Source: a virus
Reading direction: 5' to 3' (one strand)
DNA length: 64,000 nucleotides
IMG/VR virus record: IMGVR_UViG_3300008952_000015
Coordinates: 64,566 to 128,565 of that record
The stretch's first letter is position 1. Each line of letters starts with the position of its first letter. A model generated the notes under the pieces. It was not told the origin of the DNA. It saw nothing but the letters and a program-made list of their open reading frames with translations, and did no database searches. The translations under genes were made by a program, and so were the position numbers. Positions 46,634 to 62,773 of this stretch are shown in pieces.

Positions 46634-46642
46634 TCTCTCAAT

Positions 46643-47386: not shown

Positions 47387-47735
47387 ATACTTACCTCCAA
47401 TAAGTGTATTGTTTCCTAATTGTAAATCTTTTGCCCTGAAAGTTAAGGGACTTTATTAAGTTGTATCTCATCCTCAACTATCTCTGCATCATATATTTTT
47501 TCATCTATATTTTTTTTGTACATATACGCGAGAGAATCCTCGCTAGGCAATTTATTTAAAAAAGCTTTTTTTTTAAATGACTATAATCTTGACACATCGG
47601 GGGCTTCTGCTTCGAGGAAGGAGTAGTAACACGTTGGCGATAAGGGGTTTTTCTTCCATCTGTCCATCCCATAAAAAATCCCAAGAGATACCCTATGGAG
47701 ACTAAGACTAGACTTCCTATAAATTCTATCATTTA

Positions 47736-47888
47736 TTATCCACGCCAGTAATTCCGCGCACACATGCACGCAAATAAAGCACACAACGCGCCTAGGGCGT
47801 GATTGCCATTCGCGAATAAAGATACAGCAACTCCAGTATTAAACACTGTGCAAGCTAAGCTAAAGTTTTTTGATGTAAAAATTTTCAT
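47736..47888 (-). CDS. Small membrane protein
   Basis: MKIFTSKNF start after a GAGG RBS; two hydrophobic segments. Confidence 0.55.
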   Translation of the reverse strand: MKIFTSKNFSLACTVFNTGVAVSLFANGNHALGALCALFACMCARNYWRG

Positions 47889-47914
47889 AATATCCTCTCT
47901 AGATAAAAAGGGGA

Positions 47915-48044
47915 GGTGGAGCTCACTTGGAGTAGCAGACGATAGTGTGGAGTGCGTATTCTGACCACCTATCTCTTCCGTAGGCTTCGAAGGTACGCCT
48001 CCTGAACACCTACCTTTTTGTAAGCCATCCAAGGAGCTCACACC
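47915..48044 (-). ncRNA. Candidate structured RNA or leader
   Basis: Terminal pairing GGTG-TGAGCTC-CTTGGA-TGGC / GCTA-C-TCCAAG-T-GAGCTC-CACC. Confidence 0.45.
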
Positions 48045-48120
48045 TTTTCTAAACTCCCGTCGAAATTTAGCCCCAAGCCCTCCATACTCTATACCGTTAT
48101 AGTTATATTACTCTAAAGAA

Positions 48121-48252
48121 AATAAGAATTCAGCGTCGATTATTTGAATCATCGAGCGATGGTCTAGCTAGCAACGTTTTCCCCACTCTCTTGACCCAGA
48201 GAGGCTTAGAACTTAAGGGGTCGGGGGTTTCACCCGCCACTGAACTCTTATT
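48121..48252 (-). ncRNA. Candidate structured ncRNA
   Basis: 13-bp closing stem AATAAGAGTTCAG/CTGAATTCTTATT whose G-U pair works only on the minus strand; internal hairpins. Confidence 0.5.
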
Positions 48253-48270
48253 GTTGTCCATTATACTTAG

Positions 48271-48504
48271 TCAGTCTGGATTATGAGCGTTGCAAGTGCA
48301 GCACATTTCATCTTCGTGCTCCGTCTTCTCCCTACACTTGTAGCAGTAATTATAATAATATCCTTCATCATAACCACCTTTATCTTGCATGTGTACGGGT
48401 ACGTACTTCCACACCCAATCTCTTTCCTTAGGCATTACTCTCTTCTCCTGCAAATAGTTAGGCCTCTCTTTATTCAACCTTTTGAGGGTCAATAGATCCC
48501 ACAT
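48271..48504 (-). CDS. Small Zn-finger protein
   Basis: CYKC...H...CCTC motifs. Confidence 0.55.
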   Translation of the reverse strand: MWDLLTLKRLNKERPNYLQEKRVMPKERDWVWKYVPVHMQDKGGYDEGYYYNYCYKCREKTEHEDEMCCTCNAHNPD

Positions 48505-48518
48505 AATTCTCTCCGAAA

Positions 48519-48595
48519 TGGCACGCCCGATAGGATTCGAACCTATGACCCTCGGCTTAGAAGGCCGATGCTCTATCCAGCTGAGCTACGGGCGC
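48519..48595 (-). tRNA. tRNA-Arg(TCT)
   Basis: Anticodon arm TCGGC-CTTCTAA-GCCGA; canonical D and T loops; encoded CCA. Confidence 0.96.
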
Positions 48596-48601
48596 ATATA
48601 A

Positions 48602-49087
48602 TTATTCTACATTTTTCTCTGAATCTTTTTTATTATTTTCAATCATCTTAGCGATTTCTTCGTGCAAGGCTTTATCCCAAGCTTCCTTGGCTTCTTCTGG
48701 GGCCTCATAGCCTTCCTCATAAGCTTCATCAGGATGCACATATCCTGCGTGCTCTACATGCTCTTCTCCAATGCGAAGAAAGCTATCCTCATCCTCGTGT
48801 ATGTGCATATACAGAGCATCCTTGGGAAGCGTAATTGGATCTGAATGTAAAGGAGTTACTACTCGGCCTTCACCTTCTTCAACAAAAGAGAAGGTGGTAG
48901 GGGTATGAAAATAAATTTGGTGGATTTCCCCAGGAAAGCTCACGGGGCCATCAAAAAAGAAGGGAGCTACGGTCGGTAGCTTCTGCCACCATACTCTTAG
49001 CTCATCAATAGTCATATTAGGAACCCACAGCCATTCCCTGTATCCGTACTCTTCTTCTACCTGAACAACGTATTCAAACTGGTCCAT
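48602..49087 (-). CDS. Hypothetical protein
   Basis: 161-aa ORF with GGAG RBS. Confidence 0.65.
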   Translation of the reverse strand: MDQFEYVVQVEEEYGYREWLWVPNMTIDELRVWWQKLPTVAPFFFDGPVSFPGEIHQIYFHTPTTFSFVEEGEGRVVTPLHSDPITLPKDALYMHIHEDEDSFLRIGEEHVEHAGYVHPDEAYEEGYEAPEEAKEAWDKALHEEIAKMIENNKKDSEKNVE

Positions 49088-49260
49088 TACTTACACTCCA
49101 GCCGCTAGGAGATACTCAATCTGAGCTTCTTTTCCATCATTATTAATTGCTGCCGCTTCGCTTGCCTTCACCTCGTGGACTAACTCGTCTAAGTCCTCTA
49201 CTTCCAATTTCTCAAGGTCTTCTTTAGTCATCACTACACTCCGGGCAAAAGTTTTACTAT

Positions 49261-49482
49261 CTATGCTTCTGCAATCGGCTGAGGAAAAGCAGATGAAAAT
49301 AGCATACTTGTGTACACGCTCTGCCCCATCTTTGAAATAGTAATCAAAGGACTCCCATCCTCATCCATCTGAACGTCAAGATAGCCTTTTTTATATAAAG
49401 ATAAAATAGCCTCATTCATATCTCTTTCCATGTAATGAGAATTATTTATTTTCTCTAGCATAAAAGATTCAAATTCACTCAT
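49261..49482 (-). CDS. Small winged-helix-like protein
   Basis: LYKKGYL...ITISKMG pattern. Confidence 0.5.
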   Translation of the reverse strand: MSEFESFMLEKINNSHYMERDMNEAILSLYKKGYLDVQMDEDGSPLITISKMGQSVYTSMLFSSAFPQPIAEA

Positions 49483-50071
49483 CACAATCCTCCTCCTCTT
49501 CTTCTTCTGGCAACTCATAGCAATTATCACCCTGAAACTCACCCTCATAAAACTCTGCATCTCCGGCAAAGCCCATGCCAGCTTCTTCATAATGAAGCTC
49601 AAAGCATAGGGTAGGCCAATCTTTAGAAACTTTTGTTAGAAAGTTTAGGGGAGGAGCCCAAGGAGTCTCAAATGAATAACCAAGAAAAGAATCTTCTGCA
49701 TCATCTAGCTGAGCTTCTGAGGCACCCCACTTACAACCCCAGTTATCATTCTCCCATGTATAGCCTCCATACGCACATGTACGTCCGAGCATTTCTGCTA
49801 CCTTCGCTGCTTGACTTCCATCATAAGGCAACTTCCTAACTTCGTCAGGAACAGGATACAGTGCGTGAAAGGAAAAGACAGAAACTTCTCCTGGCTCTGG
49901 AAGAGACTCGGACAAAGCCTTCAGCCTAACATCATCGTGAATGGGCCACCCACCACCTGTTGCATGGTAGTTATGATATGATTGCACAGGGCCTTCGGCT
50001 GTCACCTTGAACCTCTGAATGTCCTTAGATGGGCCACTTACATTTAGTTTATTCCAACACCAATTAGGCAT
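49475..50071 (-). CDS. DUF1281/YubB ferredoxin-like family protein
   Basis: MPNWCWN, NWGCKW, FETPWAPP and YEEAGMGFAG motifs. Confidence 0.75.
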   Translation of the reverse strand: MPNWCWNKLNVSGPSKDIQRFKVTAEGPVQSYHNYHATGGGWPIHDDVRLKALSESLPEPGEVSVFSFHALYPVPDEVRKLPYDGSQAAKVAEMLGRTCAYGGYTWENDNWGCKWGASEAQLDDAEDSFLGYSFETPWAPPLNFLTKVSKDWPTLCFELHYEEAGMGFAGDAEFYEGEFQGDNCYELPEEEEEEDCDE

Positions 50072-50072
50072 C

Positions 50073-50261
50073 TTACTCTCCCTGCTTTTCGCTATTAGTT
50101 TCGTCATCAAATAGATTTTCAGAAACAAAATCAGCACCACTTGTAAGTACCGACCCAACCTTGTTTACCATAGACTCTGCACTTGCAGGGTTAGTTACGG
50201 CCCAATGCACAAGACAATAAGACAAGCCCAATGCGATTATAATTTTTATATAACTTTCCAT
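50073..50261 (-). CDS. Small membrane protein
   Basis: N-terminal TM helix. Confidence 0.5.
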   Translation of the reverse strand: MESYIKIIIALGLSYCLVHWAVTNPASAESMVNKVGSVLTSGADFVSENLFDDETNSEKQGE

Positions 50262-50322
50262 GTCACTTCCTCTTTATTATTGTACGCACATACGCGTACA
50301 GGGCAAGTATTTTTTATACTCG

Positions 50323-50553
50323 CTACTCTCTCCATCTATCTGATTTAGAGAAAATCATCATATCTTCTTTGTTATCTTCTTTCTCTAGAATCTTTTTAGA
50401 CCTCTCATTACCACACAATGCTTTGTCTCTATGGTGCCACTTCCGAGAAGCCTTCTTTTGGTCATTCTCTGAAGCATATCGGAGCTTTATGATTTCTCCA
50501 CCATTCTTTAGAAATTCAGCAATTAGTTCTTCTGTACTACGTTCGTCACTCAT
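50323..50553 (-). CDS. Hypothetical protein
   Basis: IAEFLKNGGEIIKL motif seen in phage proteins. Confidence 0.6.
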   Translation of the reverse strand: MSDERSTEELIAEFLKNGGEIIKLRYASENDQKKASRKWHHRDKALCGNERSKKILEKEDNKEDMMIFSKSDRWRE

Positions 50554-50567
50554 TATTATCTTCCTTT

Positions 50568-50834
50568 TTAGAAAATAGAAATTGAATTCTTATTCTTCTT
50601 TTTAGAAGTCCTTTTAGAGACTTTCTTCTTTTCTTTTACAGGTGTTACAAATTCATCAGGCGAATAGCCTTCGTCTAAGGCTTGCTGGTTCAGGTCTTTC
50701 CACAAAGCAGTCGGAACCCTACAGTTAGGACACCTACCCATAGAACCATTATAGCCAGCTTTCCCTAGCCAATAATTACCTTCTTCACTCTTGTGATAAT
50801 AGTATTTATATCCATCTAATGTAACTTCCACCAT
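50568..50834 (-). CDS. Hypothetical protein
   Basis: MVEVTL start after an AGGAG RBS. Confidence 0.55.
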   Translation of the reverse strand: MVEVTLDGYKYYYHKSEEGNYWLGKAGYNGSMGRCPNCRVPTALWKDLNQQALDEGYSPDEFVTPVKEKKKVSKRTSKKKNKNSISIF

Positions 50835-51088
50835 CACAAATCTCCTGCTTAGTAATAGGTCAACTGACCTTTCACAAAGATATAATCGGTGCAATAAATA
50901 TGCCAAATAATTTCTATAAGCCGACCAAAGAGTTTGTAAACCTATTGTTTGCTCGGTATGTAAACCTATTGCCCGAGGCTGGGTTGAGGGAAAATTTCAT
51001 TTTATTTTCTACATCGGTTATATCGTTGTGAGAGAATACTCTCTCAAGAAACCCTCCATCATCGGCGGGATTAGACTAGGAGTCTGTT

Positions 51089-51496
51089 ATGCAGTCCATT
51101 TTTACAAGCGAGCACAGCGAGAGTCCCGCAGCAATCCTGCGTAAGACTATGAGCGTCAGTCTCGGTGATGATGGCACCCCGATGGTGTCTTTCGCCGTGA
51201 ACCGAGGCAAGGGGTCTGGTCGTCAATCAATGCCAGTTTCGGAGTTTGCCGATTATGTCGGTGCTCTGGAAGATGCCCTTCAAGCAGGTATCTCGGAGGA
51301 ATCTGACGAGGCTCTTTCGGCAGCAGATATGGTGCGGCGCACCATCCGTCAGGACGAAGGTATTGTATCCTTCCGAGTCCGAGGCGGGAAGGGTGCTAAG
51401 CCAGCGAAGCTGCCAGTTGATAGCTTCTCTGAGGTTGTTGACCTTCTCTCCTCCACTGTTGACGCAGTAGAGGATGCTGGTAGCAAGTTGGCCTAA
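51089..51496 (+). CDS. Paralogue 2 of the triplicated protein
   Basis: See 46151; own promoter motif at 51005. Confidence 0.8.
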   Translation: MQSIFTSEHSESPAAILRKTMSVSLGDDGTPMVSFAVNRGKGSGRQSMPVSEFADYVGALEDALQAGISEESDEALSAADMVRRTIRQDEGIVSFRVRGGKGAKPAKLPVDSFSEVVDLLSSTVDAVEDAGSKLA

Positions 51497-51597
51497 GAGC
51501 ATGGGGGAGGGGCTGCCGAGTAAAGTTCGGACCCTCCCCCATTAGGACGAGTTGTAAATCTTTTGCCCAAAACAGTTCTGACACAGTAAGGACCATT

Positions 51598-51801
51598 ATG
51601 CGCTTCGGAACGAATGAAACTCGGTCAATGTCTAACCAAGCATTGTTCACCCTCATTGATAACAAAAAGCAAGCCATTGAGAGGCTTCAGGAAAAGAAGT
51701 TAGATTCAAAGAAAGAAGAGGTAGAGTATTGCTACCTCGTTCGAGAAAAGCAACGAAGATTTCACAAGCCAGTAAAGCACCCTGGCTGCTGTATCAACTA
51801 A
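51598..51801 (+). CDS. Hypothetical protein
   Basis: AAGGA RBS; bracketed by 15-bp motif copies at 51554 and 51814. Confidence 0.55.
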   Translation: MRFGTNETRSMSNQALFTLIDNKKQAIERLQEKKLDSKKEEVEYCYLVREKQRRFHKPVKHPGCCIN

Positions 51802-51995
51802 GGCTAAGGTCTTGTAAAACTATTGCCCGAGGGGTATAATGAAAACTGGTAAATCAAAACTTTTCAAATCAAGAAAAGATCTTGACGGTCAGTTTCACCG
51901 AGGAAATAAGGGTCGTAGTGCTGCCAAAGCAAAGAAGCATAAAAGATCTATAGAGAAATCTCTAAGGCAAAAGTCCAAAGAGATATGTAAGGACC

Positions 51996-52298
51996 ATGAA
52001 GAATAATTATAAAAAAATAGCTTCTGAAATTGGAGAGTTAGTTCAAGAGAAGAATGATGCTTATGGCGATTCTTTTGGACAAGCCTGTCGAATCTTAGAG
52101 GTTCTTTATCCAAATGGGATAAAACCATTTCAATACAGAGATGCTTTGGCTATAACAAGGGTTATTGATAAGCTATTTAGGTTGGCTAATAAGAAAGATG
52201 CCTTTGGCGAAAGTCCTTGGCGTGACATTTGCGGTTATGCCATATTAGGTGTTGCTAATGATGAAGATGATGAAAAGAACAGAATAGATAATAAGTGA
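51996..52298 (+). CDS. DUF1599 / nucleotide-modification-associated domain 1 protein
   Basis: KNDAYGDSF, DKLFRL and DICGYAIL motifs. Confidence 0.75.
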   Translation: MKNNYKKIASEIGELVQEKNDAYGDSFGQACRILEVLYPNGIKPFQYRDALAITRVIDKLFRLANKKDAFGESPWRDICGYAILGVANDEDDEKNRIDNK

Positions 52299-52516
52299 TG
52301 CAAGATCCGTGCCAAAGCAATGTAAAACTATTGCCCGACGAGCTGTCGGACGAAGAACTAGAGCAGGTAGTTGGCGGGATGAACTACAATCAATTTCAAG
52401 TCTGGCGTGTAAATTATTTAAATAATTTTCTTCACCAGTTATATGATCCTGAGAGAAGTAGAACGGCAAAGCAACCCGGTGTGATTACCGAAAGTGTATC
52501 TCCCCCAAAAAAATAA
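52295..52516 (+). CDS. Small protein with double-glycine leader-like motif
   Basis: ELSDEELEQVVGG. Confidence 0.5.
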   Translation: MMQDPCQSNVKLLPDELSDEELEQVVGGMNYNQFQVWRVNYLNNFLHQLYDPERSRTAKQPGVITESVSPPKK

Positions 52517-52585
52517 GCTGCGCTATTGCTTCCTCCCTCGCCCTACCTGCTGCGACACGAAACGTGGCAGGTAGGGCTTTTCCTT
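52445..52585 (+). ncRNA. Candidate small RNA A
   Basis: Promoter motif 52426-52444, terminator hairpin 52540-52581, two boxes shared with the 53940 RNA. Confidence 0.5.
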
Positions 52586-52604
52586 TTATAAAACATAGGG
52601 GCAA

Positions 52605-52877
52605 ATGATGGACGTTAGAATTGAAGCAATCAGAAAAGATCCTTGTGTTGGAAATGGCACTTGCAGCTCAATCGACGAATGTTTGGGCGACGATGAATTG
52701 TCTTGGATGCTTAATGAGGATGGTGTTGTCTCAACAGCAGTCGCTATCCAATGGGCAAGAGATTATGAGCAAATGTTTATGGAACAACTGCTGAACACTA
52801 GATGGGGAGAGGATAGCGACCCTGAGCTAAAAGAATATGCAGCTTGGAAAAAGAAACTTGAGGATAATCCCCTTTAG
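52605..52877 (+). CDS. Hypothetical protein
   Basis: 90-aa ORF. Confidence 0.6.
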   Translation: MMDVRIEAIRKDPCVGNGTCSSIDECLGDDELSWMLNEDGVVSTAVAIQWARDYEQMFMEQLLNTRWGEDSDPELKEYAAWKKKLEDNPL

Positions 52878-52946
52878 AAGTAACATGGGCCATCGAGAAA
52901 ATTTTAACATATTTTCTTCACCAATTATATAAGAAAGGAATATAAG

Positions 52947-53165
52947 ATGAAAGCAATTATTATCGGAGTCACGGCAGCTATCGGGCTGCTTGGCGGAGCA
53001 GTAAGTATGGTCGGAAACGACAAGACCGAAGAGAGCACTCAGGGCTACATTAACCAGCCAGTGCAGTACCTTGAATTCACAGAGCCTATGGAAATTACAG
53101 GGCGCATACAACATATCATTTTCACGCCTGATGAAGCAGAGGAAATATTGAGCAAGGAAAAGTAA
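52947..53165 (+). CDS. Small exported protein (paralogue of 63348-63578)
   Basis: Signal/TM helix then GY..PV.Y..F.EPMEI. Confidence 0.65.
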   Translation: MKAIIIGVTAAIGLLGGAVSMVGNDKTEESTQGYINQPVQYLEFTEPMEITGRIQHIIFTPDEAEEILSKEK

Positions 53166-53286
53166 GTAAACAGAATGCACGCACGCACACACAGCGTATA
53201 CATAGTGTGTGCGTGCGGGAGCTTATGCGGGCTTTAAAGTTAGTTGCGTGCGTGTATACTTAATTTGTAAAACTATTGCCCAGGAA

Positions 53287-53637
53287 TTATATCATCATAA
53301 AAAATATCATGATGTGAATCATGGCGACGAAAGAATAGCATAACAACAGAAGCCCAATTCCACTTTGGGCTATTTTTTTATTTATATATTTATTTAATAA
53401 ATATAGTCCAGGCAGGCTCAAACCAAGCTTTATCAAAACAAAGCTTGCTGGAGAGTCCTTGATTTGGGCGGAGAGCAATGGATTGGCCTCTTCTATCCCG
53501 AAAAAAAAATACCAATTAAGGGTAGCTATGAGATCAAGTATTATAAGTAACAGTAATATTCTGATATGAACTTGTTTAAAGTACTGTATAACCTTTGTCA
53601 TATTTAGAATACTACAAGAAATAACTCCGCAAGACAA
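53287..53637 (-). CDS. DUF5658-like membrane protein
   Basis: LDLIATL...EANPLL...FVLIKL; three TM helices. Confidence 0.65.
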   Translation of the reverse strand: MSCGVISCSILNMTKVIQYFKQVHIRILLLLIILDLIATLNWYFFFGIEEANPLLSAQIKDSPASFVLIKLGLSLPGLYLLNKYINKKIAQSGIGLLLLCYSFVAMIHIMIFFMMI

Positions 53638-53939
53638 GCTCTAGTTGATTATGAAGCAAAGTCTCCAATACCTTAGCCTCTTCTTCATCAATATCTAGGT
53701 TGAAAGGCAAGTCTACTTTGACAGAAACTGACCTCTTTTTGATATCGGTGTGGAATACCGCACCAGAGGTCAGGCACTTTGTTTCGTTTGCCACGGACCA
53801 CCTCCCTTCTATCCTATATAATTGATGCCAATTTCTCTTCAAATAAAAGAAGTTGGCACATTTGTTGCACAGAGTAAAACTATTGCCCAGGATGCTGGGA
53901 AACAAGAATTGAAAATATTTTCTTCACCAGTTATATAGC

Positions 53940-54205
53940 TCTGGATGGAGAAAGAAGATAAACGGCAAAGCAAAGAGGTAGAGTCAGAGGCCATCACGAA
54001 TCACAGAGAAACTTATCCGGTCCATAATCGAATACTAGTCAAGACTTGGCATAAGGATAAGAGGACATGTAATTCAAAGAGCGGGCTCCAGACGCTGTTT
54101 TACACGCAGGCTGCGCTAAACTTTTTCTGAACCCTTCTGGGATACTGTTCGCGAACAGGAACCGGGGACTCAAGCTAACGCATTGGTCCCCGGTATCCCT
54201 CTACT
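53940..54205 (+). ncRNA. Candidate small RNA B
   Basis: Promoter motif 53917-53936; boxes shared with RNA A; 3' hairpin GGGATAC..ACCGGGGAC/GTCCCCGGT-ATCCC. Confidence 0.45.
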
Positions 54206-54446
54206 CGAATTGTAAAACTATTGCCCGGGGCAATTGATAAAGTTTTTATCAATAGCTTCCAAACGCCATAGCCATAAATGTAAGAGCTAAGCCGAAAGAG
54301 CCAGCTCCTATAGTATAACCTATTATCTTTACAATTCGGATTGTTTTGTAACTATCCATGAAAACCTCCCTACTTATAAAAGTATTGACTTTCACCAATA
54401 ATTAGCAGATTTTCAGCACGCACGCGGGCAAAAGGTTTACATAAGG

Positions 54447-54479
54447 CAAAAAAAAAGCACCCTGCCGAAGCAGAGTGCC
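54447..54479 (-). terminator. Intrinsic terminator of the large ncRNA
   Basis: GCACTCTGC-TTCG-GCAGGGTGC followed by 9 T on the minus strand. Confidence 0.9.
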
Positions 54480-55158
54480 TAAAAACTCAGGACTGCATAT
54501 CCTTGGTTTTTAAGTGGGAGACACTAGCATGTCTTGTTCTCCCTCCAGTGACCCCCAAAGCGGTTAAGCTCTGTCCCCTTGCGGGTTAGGCGTACACACA
54601 CGGGCAACTAATACCCTTCACTGGATTGCTCCCTGTTCTCACCCTTTGGAGGTGTTGAACAGCAAACGATACTCCTGGCCCCATTCTGTGCTCGATAGAG
54701 TAGGTTGTACACCTCCCCCCTCAATCACACGCTAAGGTTCAACCCCTTGGTAGGATATTCCCCTAACCCCTTTCGGGACGGTAGGACCGTTGCCGTTCCT
54801 ACCAGAGAGCCTTCTGACACCAGAAGTTAAGTTCTGTCAGCGTTAACCGACTTACCAAGAGTTTTTCTTAGTGTATGCCCTGTACCCGTTTCCACGATGA
54901 ACCTACAAGTTCGCAGATACCTTCAGCAGCACTCCTATAGTGGAATATAGGCTCACGCATCCGATTACCAGATGATACTCAGGGCTACCACACCCCTTAA
55001 CTCATCCCCCTTCATAGTTGGGCGGCAACGTGTATGCACACGTCTTTCCCAAACCGGGTTCTCGCTATCTTCCGAAGAAGCTTCAGATCCGGTATCTGAA
55101 GTTTAAAGACCCGAGAGCAAGGGTCATATTCTAAATTTTAAAAGACCGTATTTCTTAC
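54480..55158 (-). ncRNA. Large (~680-nt) structured ncRNA, GOLLD/ROOL-class size, family unassigned
   Basis: No ORF >=60 aa in any frame; bounded by a promoter motif (55165-55183) and a terminator; many GNRA/UUCG-capped hairpins. Confidence 0.75.
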
Positions 55159-55247
55159 ACTAGCATATAACTGATGTAGAAAATAATTTCATTTTTCAAT
55201 CGTGATACAATCATACCCGTGACTGAAAAAAAACTCAACTTTATTTT

Positions 55248-55457
55248 CTAAAATTCTTTCCAGCTAATTGATTCTCCGTCAAGCTTCCTTTGAAGCCTCA
55301 CTTTGAAGCCAAGAGCTTTGTGTCCACTCAGGGGAGATACAAGCTCAAGAGCATAGCTCACTTGATCCGTAGTAGCATTTCGCTTCAATGCCTCTCGGCA
55401 AAACCCATACACAAATTTTCTATGCTCGCTCGTATCTGCCATGATGCTCCTTTGCAA
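55248..55457 (-). CDS. Hypothetical protein
   Basis: MADTSEH start after an AAGGAG RBS. Confidence 0.55.
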   Translation of the reverse strand: MQRSIMADTSEHRKFVYGFCREALKRNATTDQVSYALELVSPLSGHKALGFKVRLQRKLDGESISWKEF

Positions 55458-55519
55458 TCAATCGGTTAGAGAGATGAGGCACCTGATTTCCCTGTGCCTC
55501 CCCGTGGGGTTCCAAACTT

Positions 55520-55966
55520 TTATTCCTCGAATGAAGGCTCATCAATCGGGCTGGACAATTTATTCCCAGCCGTTTCGACGGCATCCACAGTTGACCGCAG
55601 CAACTCTACGACCTCAGAGAAATCTTCCGAACCGAGCTTAGCTGGCTTTGAACCCTTGCCAGACCGGACCCTAAAAGAAATCTGCCCATCATCCTGCCGA
55701 ATTGTACGTCGCACAGTCTCAGCAGCCGAAAGATTCTCGTCTTCAGCCTCAGGAATTCCATTCTCGGAATATCCTTCCAATGCCATGACATACTCTCGGT
55801 ATTGGTCAACAGGCAAAACCTGCGCTCCGCTACCCTTACCACGGTTCGTGGCAAAACTTACCATCGGTGTTCCATCGTCATCAACAGAAACCGACATAGT
55901 TTGTCGAATAACCTGTGCTGGGCTTTCGCTATGGTCGCTTGCAAAAATGTTAGTCTTATCGCTCAT
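55520..55966 (-). CDS. Paralogue 3 of the triplicated protein
   Basis: See 46151; two tandem promoter motifs at 56024 and 56095. Confidence 0.8.
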   Translation of the reverse strand: MSDKTNIFASDHSESPAQVIRQTMSVSVDDDGTPMVSFATNRGKGSGAQVLPVDQYREYVMALEGYSENGIPEAEDENLSAAETVRRTIRQDDGQISFRVRSGKGSKPAKLGSEDFSEVVELLRSTVDAVETAGNKLSSPIDEPSFEE

Positions 55967-56222
55967 AATTTATCCTTTTTCTTGCGGCGTTTGGTTGAAA
56001 GTAATATCGGGTGCCGCACAACGATATAACTGATGTAGAAAATAATCTCAAATTTTCTATCTGCTCTTTTTCTCTTGTCCTTTCCTACACAACGATATAA
56101 CCGATGTAGAAAATAATCTCAAATTTTACCGTAAAACTATTGCCCGGCGCAGGGCAGAGATGGCGGGAAGAAAATGAAGTTTTTTTCTTCATCAGTTATA
56201 TCAATGTGAAAGGAGACTAAAG

Positions 56223-56441
56223 ATGAATAAACCATTTGAGAACGAAGGAAAGAATGAAGTAATCGAGAATCTTCTTGAAGAATTTTCGAAGAAAATCGGG
56301 ACGCCTCGAAGTATTGCTTTCAAAACAAATACTTGCGTCACTTGTGGCGGCGAAGCTAACGACTTTCGAGATACGACTTCCAAGAAGGAATACTCTATCT
56401 CCGGCATGTGTCAAGCCTGTCAGGATAAGATTTGGGGTTAG
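56223..56441 (+). CDS. Small Zn-ribbon protein
   Basis: CVTCG...EYSISGMCQACQD; promoter motif at 56183. Confidence 0.7.
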   Translation: MNKPFENEGKNEVIENLLEEFSKKIGTPRSIAFKTNTCVTCGGEANDFRDTTSKKEYSISGMCQACQDKIWG

Positions 56442-56518
56442 GAAGTATAGTATATACCTGTAAAGGTAAAATATACCCAACCGTTAGAATTTTTCAACCA
56501 TAAAAATAGGAGAAAATT

Positions 56519-56749
56519 ATGGGAATGCAAAGAAATCGATCTGCTCGTCAAGCAGAGGCTAAAGAGAGGGATGCTGCTCGGGCAGAACTTACCGATCAGC
56601 AGCAGCTTGATCGACTGGATACAATCCTTGGAGTTGGGATTGGGGCGAAAAAGGAGCGAGCAAGGCTCGCCAAGCGAATTGTTGAGGTTGCAAAAACTAA
56701 GACCTCGGCTCCAAAAAAGAAAAAGAAGGCAACCAAAGGGAAGGAGTAA
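56519..56749 (+). CDS. Small basic protein
   Basis: AGGAG RBS; stop codon supplied by the 15-bp motif. Confidence 0.7.
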   Translation: MGMQRNRSARQAEAKERDAARAELTDQQQLDRLDTILGVGIGAKKERARLAKRIVEVAKTKTSAPKKKKKATKGKE

Positions 56750-56825
56750 AACTATTGCCCGGTGGGGACAGAATATAAGATTTATTTCTTCATCGGTTAT
56801 ATAGTGATGTAATCAGGAGGTAAGC

Positions 56826-57095
56826 ATGGGATTGATAAATGATGATGATACAGGCCGACCGTTATGGTATCGAGCCATCCACCGCAAGGTTTTGGTGGTC
56901 TACACCGAACACGCCTTTGGTGATGACCGTGGAGTGTGGGCTGCTTATGTAGTCCCAGTAAAGGGTGAGAATCATAATAAGGAAGCCCAAACTTGGCGCT
57001 CAGAAGGCGTTAAGATGACCGAAAGTGAGGCTCGTGCTATATACGGTGCTGTGACAGAAGATTTTGACAATCGTGGTTTGAAGTATAATCCCTAA
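56826..57095 (+). CDS. Hypothetical protein
   Basis: GGAGG RBS; promoter motif at 56785. Confidence 0.7.
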   Translation: MGLINDDDTGRPLWYRAIHRKVLVVYTEHAFGDDRGVWAAYVVPVKGENHNKEAQTWRSEGVKMTESEARAIYGAVTEDFDNRGLKYNP

Positions 57096-57101
57096 TAAGG
57101 G

Positions 57102-57515
57102 ATGGGAGGCGGTATGTTTGACGAATTGGTAGGACAAGCGGTCCAGGCAATCATTCTTGAGAAAGAGGGCCAAACCCTTATTATCAAAACCGACAAGTAT
57201 AAATATACTTTCGTTGCGGAAGGTGACTGCTGTGCTGTCGCCTATGTTTTGGAGCCTGACGAAGAAGATCTGAGGGATTTTCTGGGGAACAAAATTGTTC
57301 AAGCCACCTCAAGTGCCGTTAGTGTTACTAACGATGATTGGGGAAACCAGACCGATACCGAATTCTACAACCTTCGAACTCACAAGGGAGAGCTAACCCT
57401 TGAGCTTCGGACAGAACATAACGGATATTATTGTGGCTGGCTGATGCTGGTCGGCAGGGAAGAACTGTGGCCTATCCATGATGACATTCGAGAGAAGGCA
57501 ATCCGGGGAATGTAA
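57102..57515 (+). CDS. Conserved phage protein (DCC...NGYY)
   Basis: GDCCA and HNGYYCG motifs; stop codon lies inside the 15-bp motif. Confidence 0.7.
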   Translation: MGGGMFDELVGQAVQAIILEKEGQTLIIKTDKYKYTFVAEGDCCAVAYVLEPDEEDLRDFLGNKIVQATSSAVSVTNDDWGNQTDTEFYNLRTHKGELTLELRTEHNGYYCGWLMLVGREELWPIHDDIREKAIRGM

Positions 57516-57595
57516 ATCTTTTGCCCGGCCGGTGGAGAATTTGAAATAATTTTCTTCATCGGTTATATCATGGTGTAACAAACACGGAGTGTAAG

Positions 57596-57901
57596 ATGAG
57601 TGTAGAATTCGATTACGAAGATATTGAAGAAGGCTATAACGTCGAAAATGAACAATGGTTCTTTTCTGCGGCGATGGTCAGCACTTGTGAGCCGCTTTTC
57701 AATGATTGCGAAGATAATTATGATGTTAGGGCAAAGCTCGAAAATGCTGGTGTCATCGACTCAACTGTTGAGGACGACACCGAATCTTGTCAGCTCTGGT
57801 GCTATTTCAATAGCAAGGCAGACGGCGAAAGCTTCGTTGATCGGCTGAACGAATATCTTGTAAAGAAAGCTGCGGTGCTCGAAGAAGCGGCGGCGTTCTA
57901 A
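57596..57901 (+). CDS. Acidic hypothetical protein
   Basis: GGAG RBS; promoter motif at 57550. Confidence 0.7.
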   Translation: MSVEFDYEDIEEGYNVENEQWFFSAAMVSTCEPLFNDCEDNYDVRAKLENAGVIDSTVEDDTESCQLWCYFNSKADGESFVDRLNEYLVKKAAVLEEAAAF

Positions 57902-57932
57902 AGTAAATCTTTTGCCCAGGGAGGGTGATAAA

Positions 57933-58271
57933 GTGGGATTTTTTAGTTGGAATTGTAATGGATGCGGCCACCCGATGCTGAACCCATACTCTGTGAATGG
58001 CATCAATAGCTGGATGGCGAATGTTGTAGTCATTGAGGGTGGCAGCAAAACTCTGCTGAGAGGCGAGTACGATGGATATGGTCGGGTCGATGATAGAGAT
58101 ATACAGCTCGGACCCTGGAAAGATAATTCCAATCTTGAGAACGAACCATGCTGTTATCACGATGCGTGCTGGGTGAAGGCCGGCGAACCTACAGAATATA
58201 TCCCATCAACGCACGCAGAGGATCAAGGATACTTTTTTGACGATGAACACGATATAGAACCCCCAACGTAA
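57933..58271 (+). CDS. Conserved Cys-containing phage protein
   Basis: GTG start GFFSWNC..C, YDGYG, H..CW and DQGYF motifs. Confidence 0.7.
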   Translation: MGFFSWNCNGCGHPMLNPYSVNGINSWMANVVVIEGGSKTLLRGEYDGYGRVDDRDIQLGPWKDNSNLENEPCCYHDACWVKAGEPTEYIPSTHAEDQGYFFDDEHDIEPPT

Positions 58272-58312
58272 ATCTATTGCCCGCGCACGCACGGGTTTTG
58301 CATGGAGATAGC

Positions 58313-58540
58313 ATGGAAAATAACCAAGGACCAATAACCCTGGATGACATTGAGGCAACTCTAAATGTCCATCGAAATTATTTGCGGCAGCTCGCGCTGG
58401 ATATAATCCTATTGGAAGATGATGATATAAATAAAAGTCTCTTTGAGTATATTCAGGTCATGGGTGAGTTTGAGCTCCTCGGAGAAATGACGGCCCTAAC
58501 GATGAAATTGCACCGACAAAATAATCACCCGCACACATGA
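58313..58540 (+). CDS. Hypothetical protein
   Basis: GGAG RBS. Confidence 0.5.
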   Translation: MENNQGPITLDDIEATLNVHRNYLRQLALDIILLEDDDINKSLFEYIQVMGEFELLGEMTALTMKLHRQNNHPHT

Positions 58541-58783
58541 AAATTTTAACTAAAAAAAGTATCATCATCGGATGATACGTATAGTTAAAAAATCCTTGAA
58601 GATTATTGTAATGTGTGCTACTATTTGTGCAATAACTTTTATTGCACAATATAGCTTCCTTAGCGCAGCAAAAGCTTTTGGCCTTGCGCACGCACAGGTA
58701 CAAAATATCCCGGACCCCGGGCAATAGGTTTACAATTTAAATAAAAGATAGCAGCCGAAAGGCTGCCATCAATTATTACGCGC

Positions 58784-59098
58784 CTATTCTTCAGACGCGG
58801 GCGCAAAGGTAATCTCTCCCCTGCATAGGCCCAAACATACTTCCAGCATATTATTCAGCCCAAGATTGGCAGGGGTAACTGGAATTCCCCAGTTTACATT
58901 CTTCCCAATATCCTCAACGAAGATTCCGCTATAAGGAACATTTCCAAGAATATGAAAAGTTGACTCATGGTGTTTCGGCACTGTGACCGTCACTCCTTCA
59001 TCATTACGATAAGTGAGTCCAATCCTTGTCATTTGGAGGTTGGACTTTTTAAATCCAATCTTTCTCATTCTTGCAAAAAATTGCTTACGAGTCAACAT
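58784..59098 (-). CDS. HicA-like small protein
   Basis: MRKIGF...VTVPKHH pattern reminiscent of the HicA fold. Confidence 0.45.
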   Translation of the reverse strand: MLTRKQFFARMRKIGFKKSNLQMTRIGLTYRNDEGVTVTVPKHHESTFHILGNVPYSGIFVEDIGKNVNWGIPVTPANLGLNNMLEVCLGLCRGEITFAPASEE

Positions 59099-59242
59099 TA
59101 TTCTTCTCCTCGGTATAGGTTTTTACGGAATAATTATCTGCGTCTGCCTGTGCATGTTCGGCCTTTCGCCTCTCTTTGATGCGAGCCTTGATAGCTTCTT
59201 GTCGGCTTCTGTCCGGTTGGGTGATTACCTTTACTCTAAACA

Positions 59243-59425
59243 TTATCCCATATCCTCTAATTCCAGCCAAGCTGAAATGTTTTGTTCAAGGCATCCAGCC
59301 TCGTCATCATTGATGTCTAATTCTTCAAGGACACGCTCACACACGTCATCACCACATTTTCCTGTCAAAACCATGTGAGCAATTTCCATCGCAGATACTG
59401 TCATGTTAAATTCAAAGTCTTCCAT
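59243..59425 (-). CDS. Small acidic protein
   Basis: AAGGAG RBS; promoter motif at 59451. Confidence 0.6.
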   Translation of the reverse strand: MEDFEFNMTVSAMEIAHMVLTGKCGDDVCERVLEELDINDDEAGCLEQNISAWLELEDMG

Positions 59426-59536
59426 TCTAATCTCTCCTTGTTACACTCTTATATAACTGGTGCAGAAAATAATCTCATATTCTGCTTAAAATTTCCCGCC
59501 GCCCGGGGCAAAAGATTTACACACTCACATATGCTC

Positions 59537-60178
59537 TTATTGAACATGATAATCAATGTTTTTAACATCTACTTGCCAACACGCTCGGCAGGGTCCACAC
59601 TTATTATCACGCTTGTATGCCTCACACGGCATGCCCATATTAGCTTGAACGGTAGATGTGGGGAGATCCCCAAAAGATTTAGGCGGTTCCCTTCCAATCA
59701 TTGGAGCGGATAGCCTAACCACAAGATTTGTAGGCCACACATCTCCAACAATCGCCGCTGCCTCTTTATACATCCTATTTTCCTTTGTCGGCATCCAAAA
59801 CTTAATGTTTGGTAGGTTATTAGCTACCGCAACCCACATCAAAAGATGTTTGACAGACTGAATGTCACCGCTGTCATGAATCCTAAAATAAGGGTCGGCA
59901 GGGTCTGTATAGTGACCAATCAAAAGAGTCATCGCCTCAATCCATCGAGGATGCTGCAAGGCTTTTAGGCGAGCTTGGTGAGCATCCTTTACAACTTGAT
60001 ACCTATAGTTTCCGTTGAACGCATAACACTTGCTGCATACACTGCCTTCGACCTTAGCCAGCTTAGCACCTGTTTTGCAGTCAAATGCTGACAAACTTGT
60101 CGACCATCCCGGCATCTTAGATGGTTTGCCTAAGCCGCTTTTATGACCCGTTATTTCTTTCGCCTCACCCAACTTCAT
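59537..60178 (-). CDS. Gp88-like (radical-SAM-related) phage protein
   Basis: C...CSKCYA, FRIHDSGD and CGPCRACW motifs. Confidence 0.75.
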   Translation of the reverse strand: MKLGEAKEITGHKSGLGKPSKMPGWSTSLSAFDCKTGAKLAKVEGSVCSKCYAFNGNYRYQVVKDAHQARLKALQHPRWIEAMTLLIGHYTDPADPYFRIHDSGDIQSVKHLLMWVAVANNLPNIKFWMPTKENRMYKEAAAIVGDVWPTNLVVRLSAPMIGREPPKSFGDLPTSTVQANMGMPCEAYKRDNKCGPCRACWQVDVKNIDYHVQ

Positions 60179-60317
60179 ACCCGCCTCCGTTATTACATAA
60201 CGATATAACCGATGAAGAAAAAAATCTTAAATAGTTTTGTAAAGCTATTGTATCAATCCCTAAAAATTGTTGGCACGATTCTTGCAAGAATACTTTTGTA
60301 AATCTTTTGCCCGGATT

Positions 60318-60361
60318 GAAAAAAAGACCGATGAAACAGGAGGCATTGTTTCATCGGTCTT
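60318..60361 (-). terminator. Intrinsic terminator
   Basis: AAGACCGATGAAACA/TGTTTCATCGGTCTT stem with U-tail on the minus strand. Confidence 0.75.
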
Positions 60362-60391
60362 GAGCAAAAGATTTAGAAACCCATTACTCCA

Positions 60392-60847
60392 TCACCTTTC
60401 CCAAGGTGGACGGGGATCACCACTTCCCCAATTTTCTTCCCAACTATTCCTCATTCGCTGGATTCCTTCGAGTGGAACCCCATGACCATTACGATAAGCC
60501 AACTCCTCATCTGTACACCCGCCATCGTAGGTGCTTACAACAGTTACACGATAACCGTGTTTTTCGGCCATATCAAAATATGGCTGCATCTCCCACCGCT
60601 GGCAAAAGGTGTTGTGAACAACAACGCTTCGACCATTAGCCATAGCTGTAGCTGCACGGTCCTGACAGTGCGCGTGTGCTTGCGGAAGGAGGTTTGGGCT
60701 AAAAATATACTCTCCCTCTGGAGTAGTAAAGAAATCATCCGCTGCCAAAGAAACAGCCCCAGTACCAGCGCAAAGCAGGTTTCCCAGAGTGGTCTTTCCA
60801 GACCCAGAAATTCCTCGAATAAGAATAATAGACTTTTGCATGATCAT
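60392..60847 (-). CDS. P-loop kinase (AAA_33 / N4BP2-like)
   Basis: RGISGSGKTT, ADDFF, VHNT and RNGHGVP motifs. Confidence 0.85.
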   Translation of the reverse strand: MIMQKSIILIRGISGSGKTTLGNLLCAGTGAVSLAADDFFTTPEGEYIFSPNLLPQAHAHCQDRAATAMANGRSVVVHNTFCQRWEMQPYFDMAEKHGYRVTVVSTYDGGCTDEELAYRNGHGVPLEGIQRMRNSWEENWGSGDPRPPWER

Positions 60848-60910
60848 CTCCCTGTGTATCGATATAACTGGTGAAGAAAATTATTTCAAATTTTCCATGT
60901 GTACGTGGGC

Positions 60911-61279
60911 TTACCCCTTCCAGTTCAGCCATTCTTGATCAGTCTGTGGAGCAAGACCCTTCTCTACTCCTAAGTTTACCTGAACCATTCGATCCCGTTG
61001 ATTTTTAAGGATTATATTTTGCTCCTCAAGTTCCACCATTTTAGATGAAAGAAAATGAATATACTCGCCCGCATCCCTGCCGGCATCTTCTTGCCCCTGT
61101 TTATGAGCCTCCTGGATGACAAAGGCTATAAGATCAGCAAGCTCAGGGTAGGCGTTACCGGGGAACCCCTCATCCTCTACCCAGGGAAATTTATCGTAAA
61201 TTGCTTCGTACAAAGCTTCCTCAGGAAAATCTCCCACCACATAATCTGGCGGGTCCATATCGTTTGGTGATCTAATCAT
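60911..61279 (-). CDS. Hypothetical protein
   Basis: 122-aa ORF with GGAG RBS. Confidence 0.6.
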   Translation of the reverse strand: MIRSPNDMDPPDYVVGDFPEEALYEAIYDKFPWVEDEGFPGNAYPELADLIAFVIQEAHKQGQEDAGRDAGEYIHFLSSKMVELEEQNIILKNQRDRMVQVNLGVEKGLAPQTDQEWLNWKG

Positions 61280-61290
61280 TATAGCAACTC

Positions 61291-61611
61291 CTACAAAACT
61301 TGCTTTTTGAGCCAGTCAACAAAATCGAAAGCATTAGTTTTGCCACCGATATTGAACTGAACGGGGGCGGTTCCAGCCCAAAACTCTGATGGGGTAATCC
61401 CAGTATCAGGGCAGTACAAGGTTGTATATTTCCAGTCGTACAGGGTAAAAACTTCTCCCTCATTATTTTCAAAAATATACTCCCCGGAAACTTTATACCC
61501 GTCACATTCAATCGGCTCACCAAACTTCTCGATAAGCTTCGCTGGTGAAAGGTCAACCTCTGATTGACGGTGAGAACCATTTGTATCTGCATCTTGTGAT
61601 AATCTAAACAT
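61291..61611 (-). CDS. Conserved phage protein (paralogue of 32717-33067)
   Basis: Shared motifs; promoter motif at 61632. Confidence 0.7.
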   Translation of the reverse strand: MFRLSQDADTNGSHRQSEVDLSPAKLIEKFGEPIECDGYKVSGEYIFENNEGEVFTLYDWKYTTLYCPDTGITPSEFWAGTAPVQFNIGGKTNAFDFVDWLKKQVL

Positions 61612-61687
61612 TTGTTATCTCCTTCACAACCATATAACCGATGTAGAAAAATATATCAAATAGTTATGTAAATCTTTTGCCCATGAT

Positions 61688-61954
61688 TTATTCTGAATCT
61701 CTTGATGGGGACTCTTGCATACACACGCATCTTGTGGGTGTCACTTCTTGCATGACAACCCCAGTGGCATCGCAGGCACTCTTACACTCCTCTATAATAT
61801 CTTCACTTACCTGAAAAGAATAGAAAAGTACGATAAGGGAAATAGTGGCGCAAATAGCAAGAAATATATCCCGATATACTCTATAGGTATAGAGCTTTCG
61901 AGTTATAGTCTTTAACTCGTCCTCGCACGTTTCTGGTGATAAATGATGCGCCAC
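61688..61954 (-). CDS. Membrane protein with Cys-rich C-terminus
   Basis: TM helix, CKSAC...CVC. Confidence 0.55.
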   Translation of the reverse strand: MAHHLSPETCEDELKTITRKLYTYRVYRDIFLAICATISLIVLFYSFQVSEDIIEECKSACDATGVVMQEVTPTRCVCMQESPSRDSE

Positions 61955-61963
61955 TATTTCCTC

Positions 61964-62299
61964 CTATTTCAAAGATGGGCCAGCTTTCTTCATAAGAGTC
62001 TTTTGCTTATGAAGAAAGCTCGTCCCATCTTCATCTTCGATATAACGATAGACCTTGACCTTGTAACGCTGGCCCTTTTTTATCTTACCATCTTTATGGT
62101 CACGCCTACACGTATGCACCGAAAGAGAAATAAGTTTATTCCAAGTCATTCCATCATCAAGCTCATAACCTGCATCGGCAAGCCACGGACGATCTGCGTT
62201 TTCAAGCAAACCTTCAGGACACGAGCATCCACCTTCGGACGCATGGCATCCACATGAATAATAGTACATTCCCCAATCATCTGGTACGTTATAGCTCAC
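61964..62299 (-). CDS. Cys/His-containing hypothetical protein
   Basis: CGCHASEGGCSC. Confidence 0.55.
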   Translation of the reverse strand: MSYNVPDDWGMYYYSCGCHASEGGCSCPEGLLENADRPWLADAGYELDDGMTWNKLISLSVHTCRRDHKDGKIKKGQRYKVKVYRYIEDEDGTSFLHKQKTLMKKAGPSLK

Positions 62300-62719: not shown

Positions 62720-62773
62720 CTCTAACCTCCCTGCTTCAATATAACTGATGAAGAAAAAATACTCAAACTTTGC

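Follow-up and report, generated by a model that had tools for sequence, protein, structure and literature searches.

What does a phage encode in about 700 nt that contain no open reading frame (ORF) of 60 amino acids or more in any frame? The question is raised by a minus-strand locus in a 64,000-nt stretch of viral DNA, referred to here as the window, which spans positions 64,566 to 128,565, the 3′ half of the 128,565-bp IMG/VR viral record IMGVR_UViG_3300008952_000015 (CheckV completeness 38%). The window contains a transfer-messenger RNA (tmRNA), six or seven tRNAs, and genes for GroEL and an ATP-dependent DNA ligase, and is therefore considered to be a fragment of a large phage. An initial annotation proposed that the locus is a large stand-alone noncoding RNA (ncRNA) gene, possibly of a new class akin to the giant phage RNAs GOLLD and ROOL, and searches of Rfam together with covariation analysis support that proposal. 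The locus is almost certainly a genuine gene for a structured RNA whose family has no entry in Rfam 15. Many uncultured large marine phages carry a member of this family, each in a single copy.

An ORF-free gene between a predicted promoter and terminator

The initial annotation described a transcription unit running from a promoter motif to a UUCG-capped terminator. Motif counts and a terminator scan show the gene to be framed in this way, by a putative promoter of the phage's own class and a predicted intrinsic terminator (Table 1). The promoter motif, a 19-mer (TTTTCTACATCGGTTATAT), occurs 23 times in the window with up to three mismatches, compared with 0.04 copies expected by chance. The tmRNA (24799) and a tRNA (63252) each have a copy 21-22 nt upstream of the 5′ end, and the copy belonging to the large RNA lies 17 nt upstream of its conserved 5′ end. 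Given that the same 19-mer stands ahead of the tmRNA and a tRNA, we regard it as the phage's own promoter class, one that would also drive stable-RNA genes. Transcription of the large RNA would begin a few bases downstream from its motif.

Copies of the 19-mer are found on both strands of the window, ahead of the tmRNA, tRNAs, and many small genes (e.g., at 24822-24840, 36775-36793, 46084-46102, 56095-56113, and 63212-63230), and the motif is present in a related record (G002) too. Its spacing is unlike that of a sigma-70 promoter, and it is likely a phage-specific transcription signal.

At the other end of the unit, the scan recovered the UUCG-capped hairpin and T-run where they had been proposed. 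The terminator stem covaries in three homologous loci (L141, L110, and L094). The same three loci retain an extra hairpin that, in the window, lies between the terminator and the 636-nt core of the RNA, with compensatory changes in L110. With this sub-clade hairpin and the terminator following the core, the transcript in the window phage would therefore be ~700 nt long.

As first claimed, no substantial ORF is present. The longest within 54447-55183 is 44 amino acids, and each of the six frames contains 9-14 stop codons, with all three kinds represented. Recoding any one stop codon opens at most 101 amino acids. Stops are not avoided family-wide either (the best sense frame across 82 homologous sequences has a median of eight stops). 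A hidden ORF and an alternative genetic code were rejected on these results. The GC content, which had been described as higher than that of the surroundings, is 0.49-0.53 inside the gene and ~0.38-0.44 in its flanks in the window. Across the family, the corresponding values are 0.490 for the RNA and 0.426 for the flanks, the RNA being higher in 79 of 84 loci. The minimum free energy of a 694-nt stretch is -262.6 kcal/mol (z = -7.8 relative to 20 shuffles). Thus, the general hallmarks of a stand-alone structured ncRNA gene, i.e., a promoter, a terminator, no ORF, and a structure with compensatory changes (see below), are all found here.

Relatives in marine phages and absence from known families

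A search of all 4227 Rfam 15 models using Infernal, a check proposed at the outset, recovered only the tmRNA and tRNAs of the window at gathering thresholds, with no match in the RNA gene. When the 1 kb around the RNA was searched at E ≤ 10, only terminator-like chance matches were found (L10 leader, suhB, and others; E = 0.1-9). Ten homologous loci scanned at the gathering score yielded tRNAs and tmRNA and no match to a large-RNA family, and 11 short homologous loci scanned at E ≤ 5 yielded no relevant family match. In Rfam, the RNA matches none of GOLLD, ROOL, and OLE (all of which have profiles there; PMC12286853), nor HEARO, raiA, RNase P, group I or II introns, or tmRNA. The early judgment that the region resembles neither rRNA, tmRNA, nor RNase P agrees with the lack of any such Rfam 15 match in it. 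Recovery of the window's tmRNA and tRNAs by the same scans served as a positive control.

Neither blastn of the RNA nor tblastn of a neighboring 770-aa protein against 50,697 deposited phage records produced a match, and a first 20-mer probe from the RNA matched no other viral contig. No related locus was found with the 770-aa protein. The first homolog was reached via the upstream 148-aa protein, which led to a 223-kb viral contig with a syntenic copy of the RNA (72% identity). Blocks that are invariant between that copy and the window copy were used as probes, and these matched 8, 5, and 20 viral contigs. They also matched four of 32.2 million genome contigs, all four filed under metagenome-assembled genomes (MAGs), and at least 119 contigs from metagenomes. 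An nhmmer profile (651 positions) identified the RNA in 146 of the 158 loci fetched (117 full-length and 29 partial copies, 28 of the latter cut by the end of the locus). True family members make up all 26 viral pattern hits, two of the four genome contigs, and 116 of the 119 metagenome contigs among the matches listed. Five pattern hits (L040, L042, L065, L084, and L142) had no nhmmer match and were taken to be chance or too distant.

The full-length copies include 98 distinct sequences, 80 of which are <95% identical to each other and 623-687 nt long. Pairwise identity ranges upward from 0.49, with a median of 0.67. Five carrier records were searched whole, and each has a single copy of the RNA. 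Three of these are at least 90% complete (204, 293, and 317 kb), two of them with terminal repeats. A T4-type capsid gene (Pfam Gp23) was considered as a common lineage marker and rejected: it occurs in only two of the five carriers (two of the three that are at least 90% complete), and the carriers may belong to more than one lineage. Species-representative prokaryote genomes contain two true matches, on contigs of 101 and 306 kb that are filed as parts of MAGs of Halobacteriovorax and Methylococcaceae, respectively (L039 and L041). Their appearance suggests phage genomes that were binned into MAGs rather than prophages, and they are unreliable as evidence of the host.

No description of the RNA family was found in the literature searched, with the proviso that the supplements of PMC10690425 and PMC5737381 could hold fragments. 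The main text of PMC10690425, an IMG/VR-wide survey that reported 8,495 motifs, makes no mention of large phage RNAs. Compared with Rfam 15 and the literature searched, the family is new.

A fold kept by compensatory evolution

Collection of homologs and analysis of their covariation, the second check proposed initially, show that the fold is kept by compensatory evolution. All fold counts are based on an alignment (A3) of 82 sequences with a median identity of 67%, in which covariation is strong. RNAalifold predicts 136 pairs from A3, 103 of them with compensatory double changes. Curation gave a structure of 32 helices and 163 pairs, in which 97.4% of 13,271 cells are paired. By comparison, 83.1% are paired in shuffles (none of 500 reaches the observed value) and 41%-46% when partners are slid by one to three columns. 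Double changes are found at 119 curated pairs, versus 87.5 in shuffles and 37-59 when slid, and the covariation score is 0.520, versus 0.229 in shuffles and ~0.1 when slid. A scan that uses no structure (mutual information with average product correction, MI-APC) places the same helices among its top pairs, plus pairs that no nested fold can hold. The window sequence itself forms 149 of the 163 curated pairs, and seven more are gapped. Conservation and covariation extend along the whole length of the RNA.

Most of the pairings named in the initial annotation correspond to helices that are kept across the 82 homologs. These are GACCC/GGGTC, CTTCAGAT/ATCTGAAG, CTTC-TTCG-GAAG, ACGTGT/ACACGT, the GCAA-capped 10-bp stem, CCC-GCAA-GGG, CTGTTC/GAACAG, and the long-range CCAGTGA/TCACTGG. 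The CCC-GAAA-GGG hairpin is also kept, but it is invariant, so that covariation neither supports nor contradicts it. The GGGAGA/TCTCCC pairing of the terminal hairpin is present; its stem was judged by eye only and left out of the pair counts, since the sub-groups of A3 differ by one column in its register. Two competing sets of pairs were discarded. A long-range pairing predicted by RNAalifold (columns 42-44/743-745) was replaced by the local P1 hairpin, which covaries, and local pairs 471-472/478-479 were provisionally dropped for PK3 (see below), although pair 471-479 covaries too.

Table 1. Coordinates in the window of the RNA gene, its structural elements (P, hairpins and domains; PK, tertiary helices), and other genes of note
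Feature	Position	Strand	Description	Support
RNA gene unit	55183-54447	-	Promoter motif, 636-nt core, sub-clade 3′ hairpin, terminator	
Promoter motif	55165-55183	-	Putative; 19-mer, one mismatch from the commonest form	
Family-conserved core RNA	54512-55147	-	636 nt; 26 nested and 6 tertiary helices	nhmmer, A3, RNAalifold, pair counts
Conserved 5′ end	55137-55147	-	boxA-like; GGUCUUUUAAA in the window, GUUCUUU(A/G)A(A/C)A in most relatives	
P1	55108-55125	-	Hairpin GACCC/GGGUC; helix 1	97.8% paired
P2	55081-55101	-	Hairpin with conserved UACYGG-type loop; helix 2	Compensatory changes at 11/11 pairs (helices 2 and 3)
P3	55069-55080	-	Hairpin; UUCG loop in the window, mostly GAAA-type elsewhere; helix 3	See P2
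P4-P5-P6	55008-55058	-	Domain; helices 4-7	
P7/P8	54970-55007	-	Long hairpin; helices 8-13 jointly with P9-P11	
P9-P11	54919-54965	-	Long hairpin; neighbor of P7/P8	
P12	54891-54917	-	Hairpin with conserved 13-14-nt loop; helix 14	99.8% paired
P14	54671-54827	-	Central domain closed by P14; helices 18-25	
GCAA-capped stem	54780-54803	-	Inside P14 domain	
CCC-GAAA-GGG	54768-54777	-	Invariant hairpin inside P14 domain	
P19	54731-54767	-	Inside P14 domain	
P20/P21	54688-54730	-	Inside P14 domain; conserved loop with palindrome UGUACA (54706-54711)	
P22/P23	54629-54666	-	Hairpin CUGUUC/GAACAG with covarying distal stem; helix 26	13 pairs, 98.7% paired, 7 with double changes
P24	54544-54625	-	3′ domain closed by CCAGUGA/UCACUGG (P24); helices 27, 28, 30-32	
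P25	54602-54616	-	Inside 3′ domain	
P26	54553-54592	-	Inside 3′ domain	
CCC-GCAA-GGG	54577-54584	-	Inside 3′ domain	
P28	54559-54570	-	Inside 3′ domain	
Terminal hairpin	54516-54543	-	GGGAGA/UCUCCC; U-run directly after in many relatives	Stem by eye only
PK1	54986-54991 with 54940-54945	-	6-bp kiss between loops of P7/P8 and P9-P11 hairpins	96.5% paired; double changes at 5/6 pairs
PK2	54899-54905 with 54828-54834	-	Conserved P12 loop with strand leading into P14	99.8% paired; double changes at 4/7 pairs
PK3	54853-54860 with 54745-54752	-	8-bp pseudoknot across long-range helix P14	96.5% paired; double changes at 3/8 pairs
PK4	54527-54532 with 54594-54599	-	Terminal-hairpin loop with conserved GUGUG strand	98.6% paired; double changes in 34-36/82 sequences at each of three adjacent pairs
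PK5	55113-55117 with 55061-55065	-	P1 loop with conserved junction	96.6% paired; double changes at 3/5 pairs
PK6	55034-55037 with 55012-55015	-	P6 tetraloop with P5/P4 junction	98.2% paired; double changes at 3/4 pairs
Extra 3′ hairpin	54481-54511	-	Only in the window's sub-clade	Folds in isolation
Intrinsic terminator	54447-54480	-	Predicted; ~10-11-bp stem (54480-54455), UUCG loop, then U9	Terminator scan
tmRNA	24429-24799	-	Complete; same promoter motif ahead	Rfam, 122.4 bits
GroEL-type chaperonin gene	10663-12273	-		PHROG 5725, E = 2.8e-153
ATP-dependent DNA ligase gene	29275-30411	-		PHROG 114

Six tertiary helices

The six tertiary helices comprise 36 pairs. They are 97.7% paired, versus 88.2% in shuffles and 42%-52% when slid, and 21 of the pairs have double changes, versus 12.8 in shuffles and 2-6 when slid, with the caveat that the helices were chosen and counted on the same alignment, so that these controls lean in their favor. 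The per-pair counts (Table 1) are stronger evidence for the tertiary helices than the shuffle and slide controls. For PK5, an alternative was considered in which columns 36-38/260-262 provide the partner of P1-loop column 37, with the same 16 double changes; PK5 is preferred for its three covarying pairs.

A divergent, GC-richer sub-group of relatives (L030, L140, L047, L033, L045, L053, and L147) has no boxA-like 5′ end (see below). Its loop and junction sequences have changed, yet the tertiary pairings are satisfied, and it is the most informative group for covariation. Elsewhere in the fold, the palindrome UGUACA in the P21 loop occurs in 75 of the 82 sequences, and its GUAC core occurs in all 82.

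The 5′ end and its resemblance to boxA

The 5′ boundary of the family is sharp. In relatives, a TATAAT-like box precedes it by 6-8 nt, within upstream sequences that are otherwise unrelated; in an alternative setting, a tRNA on the same strand ends 8-9 nt ahead of it. The sequence at this end resembles boxA, the core of which is an 8-nt site for NusB-NusE whose E. coli form can be derived from PMC3177189. Measured against the E. coli form, the core is matched at six of eight positions in the window and at seven of eight in most relatives. The pattern G[ACU]UCUUUNA[ACU]A occurs within the first 25 nt of 64 of the 82 aligned sequences, and five of the 82 carry the E. coli-type GCUCUUU, the first seven bases of boxA. 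As in the boxA elements of rrn operons and phage lambda, a U-rich 8-nt core opens a transcript that is long, structured, and untranslated; unlike them, the window RNA matches the core only at those six positions.

Presence in RNA libraries

Part of the stretch is present in 20 entries for public sequencing runs, from 16 studies, and the organism given is in every case a marine or seawater metagenome. Of 75 sampled words, a fraction of at least 0.55 occurs in eight DNA runs. Ten metatranscriptomic RNA runs hold 0.40-0.49 of the 75 words, with near-identical sequence; RNA libraries can carry DNA, eight of the ten look like one 2020 campaign, and another comes from what may be the source study.

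Genomic setting

Of 99 distinct loci, 33 have tRNAs within 4 kb of the RNA and 12 have them within 300 nt; almost all of these tRNAs share its strand. Both tRNA islands and a tmRNA adjoin the RNA in homologous loci (in L020, the tmRNA is ~2.3 kb from the RNA copy). In two metagenome loci (L132, at 10-843, and L150), the RNA lies within a tRNA array almost without spacers, with a tRNA-Met 9 nt ahead, and in L132 a tRNA-Leu follows at 12 nt. In such arrays, release by tRNA-processing enzymes, if it occurs, would give the RNA defined ends without a dedicated promoter or terminator.

No protein neighbor is constant across the family, the commonest cluster being present in at most 28 of the 99 loci (54 of which have at least 1.5 kb of sequence upstream and 62 at least 1.5 kb downstream). 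The clusters include a 68-aa protein (28 loci), an FKBP-type isomerase (20), a 147-aa protein (16, with a member upstream of the RNA in the window), and a cold-shock-domain protein (nine). FKBP_C and CSD are the only Pfam names among the neighbor clusters, and PHROGs gave no name for the two upstream neighbors in the window. Flanking genes differ between loci and there is no split gene around the RNA, which bears out the original statement that it interrupts no gene. The varied neighbors, the flanking tRNAs, and the family-wide stop codons therefore speak for a stable RNA, produced alongside the other stable RNAs of the phage, rather than for a leader, an intron, or a coding region, and we consider it very probable that the RNA acts in trans as such.

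Two other features near the RNA are worth recording. Three paralogous, GC-rich genes encode proteins of 135-160 aa (46151-46633 and 51089-51496 on the plus strand and 55520-55966 on the minus strand). The last of these, the one copy scanned, matched nothing in Pfam or PHROGs. It lies upstream of the RNA, where its homologs are found in 16 of the 99 loci, and it is the neighbor through which the first homologous contig was reached. In addition, a 15-mer (GGGCAATAGTTTTAC) and its close variants occur in 28 copies at up to two mismatches (0.11 expected), 23 of them on the minus strand. The copies span 45112-63682, nearly all in the small-gene region, plus one at 7518. A plus-strand copy (54426-54440) directly follows the terminator of the RNA, an arrangement kept in L141, L110, and L094.

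Comparison with GOLLD, ROOL, and OLE

The structure of ROOL determined by cryo-electron microscopy (cryo-EM) is reportedly an octameric nanocage. According to PMC12286853 and PMC5737381, GOLLD and ROOL belong to phages or prophages, are about 600 to more than 800 nt long, and lie near tRNA islands, with pseudoknots that were found by covariation and with function and partner unknown. Both form RNA-only cages by cryo-EM, and some of the kissing loops predicted from covariation are intermolecular (PMC12286853; PMC5737381). GOLLD is conserved in its 3′ part and varies in its 5′ part, many of its members exceed 800 nt, and it bound ribosomes in pull-downs cited in PMC12286853. A marine example of GOLLD, env-38, lies directly behind a tRNA-Met, and ROOL env-120, which was examined by cryo-EM, is 659 nt long (PMC12286853). 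Overall, ROOL has a mean length of 581 nt, three pseudoknots, and 10 highly conserved nucleotides (PMC12286853; PMC5737381).

The RNA of the window is like GOLLD in that it is phage-encoded, very large, and ornate, with covariation-supported pseudoknots and kissing loops. It is also often beside tRNA islands, sometimes directly behind tRNA-Met, and found in marine samples too. However, a phage or prophage setting near tRNA islands (here on contigs of up to 317 kb) is common to GOLLD and ROOL and so is not specific to GOLLD. Unlike GOLLD, the RNA is ~640-690 nt long and conserved over its full length, occurs almost only on phage-like contigs rather than in prophages of sequenced bacteria, and has no similarity to the Rfam GOLLD model. 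With ROOL it shares a similar length, pseudoknots, a phage or prophage setting near tRNAs, and the lack of a known protein partner, and it too has several multistem junctions. It differs from ROOL in having no similarity to the Rfam ROOL model, in its six tertiary helices compared with the three pseudoknots described for ROOL, in having far more invariant nucleotides, and in coming from large marine phages as opposed to rumen, gut, or Firmicutes-type sources.

OLE (~600 nt, a dimer by cryo-EM) is comparable in size, ornateness, and highly conserved unpaired nucleotides. However, OLE is chromosomal in Bacillota extremophiles and works with dedicated Oap proteins encoded nearby, whereas the window RNA is phage-borne, is without a conserved neighbor, and has no match to OLE in Rfam. 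The setting and style are shared with GOLLD and ROOL and the sequence and models are not, which is why we place the RNA in a separate class of the same kind. That it is a stand-alone gene for a stable, trans-acting structured ncRNA, and a third GOLLD/ROOL-like class, is the reading we favor, with some reservation.

What the RNA may do

As to function, analogy with GOLLD and ROOL is the best guide available, and the likeness would translate into modest odds for actual self-assembly. If the analogy applies, the RNA would act in its own right during infection, as GOLLD and ROOL may, rather than as a leader. It might fold into a compact particle, probably self-associating, and could act on parts of the translation or stable-RNA machinery as a scaffold, a cage, or a decoy. 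The palindromic UGUACA loop and one or more of the covarying loop-loop helices are candidate contacts between copies, and together they offer a hint of self-association. The boxA-like 5′ end may recruit host NusB/NusE and, as would be expected from general knowledge of boxA, allow a long untranslated transcript to escape Rho termination. In tRNA islands, where the RNA sometimes lies 8-12 nt from tRNA ends, it could be released by tRNA-processing enzymes.

Formation of homo-oligomers in the style of GOLLD and ROOL is thus a possibility that we raise tentatively. A fuller version would have the RNA be a third independently evolved, self-assembling giant phage RNA, copies of which join via the UGUACA loop and/or kissing loops into a closed RNA-only particle that is made with the tRNAs and tmRNA to capture or organize the host translation or RNA-surveillance machinery. 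We regard this as rather unlikely. If it were true, the RNA, being abundant in seawater phages and highly conserved, would be the most tractable member for learning the purpose of RNA cages.

Several points weigh against self-assembly or against parts of the broader picture. The GUAC core of the palindromic loop is invariant and so cannot covary, and the outer pair is not restored in the seven of 82 sequences without UGUACA. All six tertiary helices, which were chosen and counted on the same alignment (see above), can be explained as contacts within one molecule. The boxA-like element, with its six of eight matches in the window, is absent from 18 of the 82 sequences even under a loose pattern. 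Transcript ends, abundance, and transcription in the source phage are inferred from sequence. A same-strand gene is often within tens of bases of the 3′ hairpin, so read-through into an mRNA is possible. Finally, many columns of A3 are both invariant and unpaired, far above the 10 highly conserved nucleotides noted for ROOL in PMC5737381, and these might reflect catalysis, or the binding of some conserved partner, instead of a cage.

Binding is the basis of the reading in which the RNA works as a monomer, without self-assembly, and serves as a decoy or scaffold for a conserved partner from the host or the phage (e.g., a ribosome, translation factor, RNase, or defense protein), the invariant unpaired blocks being the binding surface. 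Besides those blocks, the lack of a universal phage-encoded neighbor fits a host partner, genes of RNA-chaperone type (cold-shock domain) or for FKBP are directly downstream in subsets of loci, and there is the precedent of ribosome binding by GOLLD (pull-downs cited in PMC12286853). On the other hand, the high conservation may simply mirror limited divergence of the carriers (at the median identity of A3), no partner has been identified, and the data here do not separate this reading from self-assembly. We consider both the monomeric role and its proposed binding surface quite unlikely.

Catalysis would make the RNA a ribozyme, for example one that processes or modifies the RNAs of tRNA islands or that cleaves itself. 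The RNA resembles typical large ribozymes in its size, its six tertiary helices, and its strictly conserved unpaired nucleotides. In addition, there is a physical link to tRNA genes, and large bacterial RNAs with complex folds often catalyze reactions, as stated in PMC5737381. Yet no Rfam 15 ribozyme (RNase P types, group I and II introns, or small self-cleaving RNAs) matches at gathering or permissive thresholds, no gene is interrupted, and GOLLD, ROOL, and OLE are equally ornate without catalysis reported in the part of PMC12286853 used here. A ribozyme is improbable on this evidence.

That the RNA instead belongs to GOLLD or ROOL, as a strongly diverged member, is highly improbable. It shares their setting (phages, tRNA islands, and, in L132 and L150, a place behind tRNA-Met that recalls GOLLD env-38), and the size is near that of ROOL env-120. 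However, neither covariance model matches even at the permissive thresholds (E ≤ 10 for the 1 kb of the window and E ≤ 5 for the 11 short loci), nor at the gathering score in the 10 further loci, although secondary-structure maps were not compared directly. Least credible, and already disfavored above, is a cis-acting leader or 5′ untranslated region, or a coding region or intron missed through an unusual genetic code: same-strand genes (those of the 68-aa, FKBP, and cold-shock-domain clusters) are often within tens of bases downstream, but the downstream gene differs between loci, a strong terminator intervenes in the window, the RNA can have tRNAs on both sides, every frame is closed by all three stops, and there is neither an intron-model match nor a split gene.

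Implications for large phages

Very few bacterial or phage RNAs of such size and complexity are known, and the large RNAs of known function do fundamental jobs (rRNA, RNase P, and self-splicing introns). Among phages, two classes reach this size, GOLLD and ROOL. A further, unrelated class that is widespread in large marine phages, has a secondary and tertiary pairing map determined exceptionally well from covariation alone, and is present in ocean RNA libraries would be a ready target for cryo-EM, with many constraints. For annotation, the point is that these ~650-bp "gene-free" gaps in marine phage genomes are genes. More generally, such a class would show that giant structured RNAs are recurrent in large phages with tRNA islands, and would provide a comparative handle on what three unrelated RNAs in one genomic niche share.

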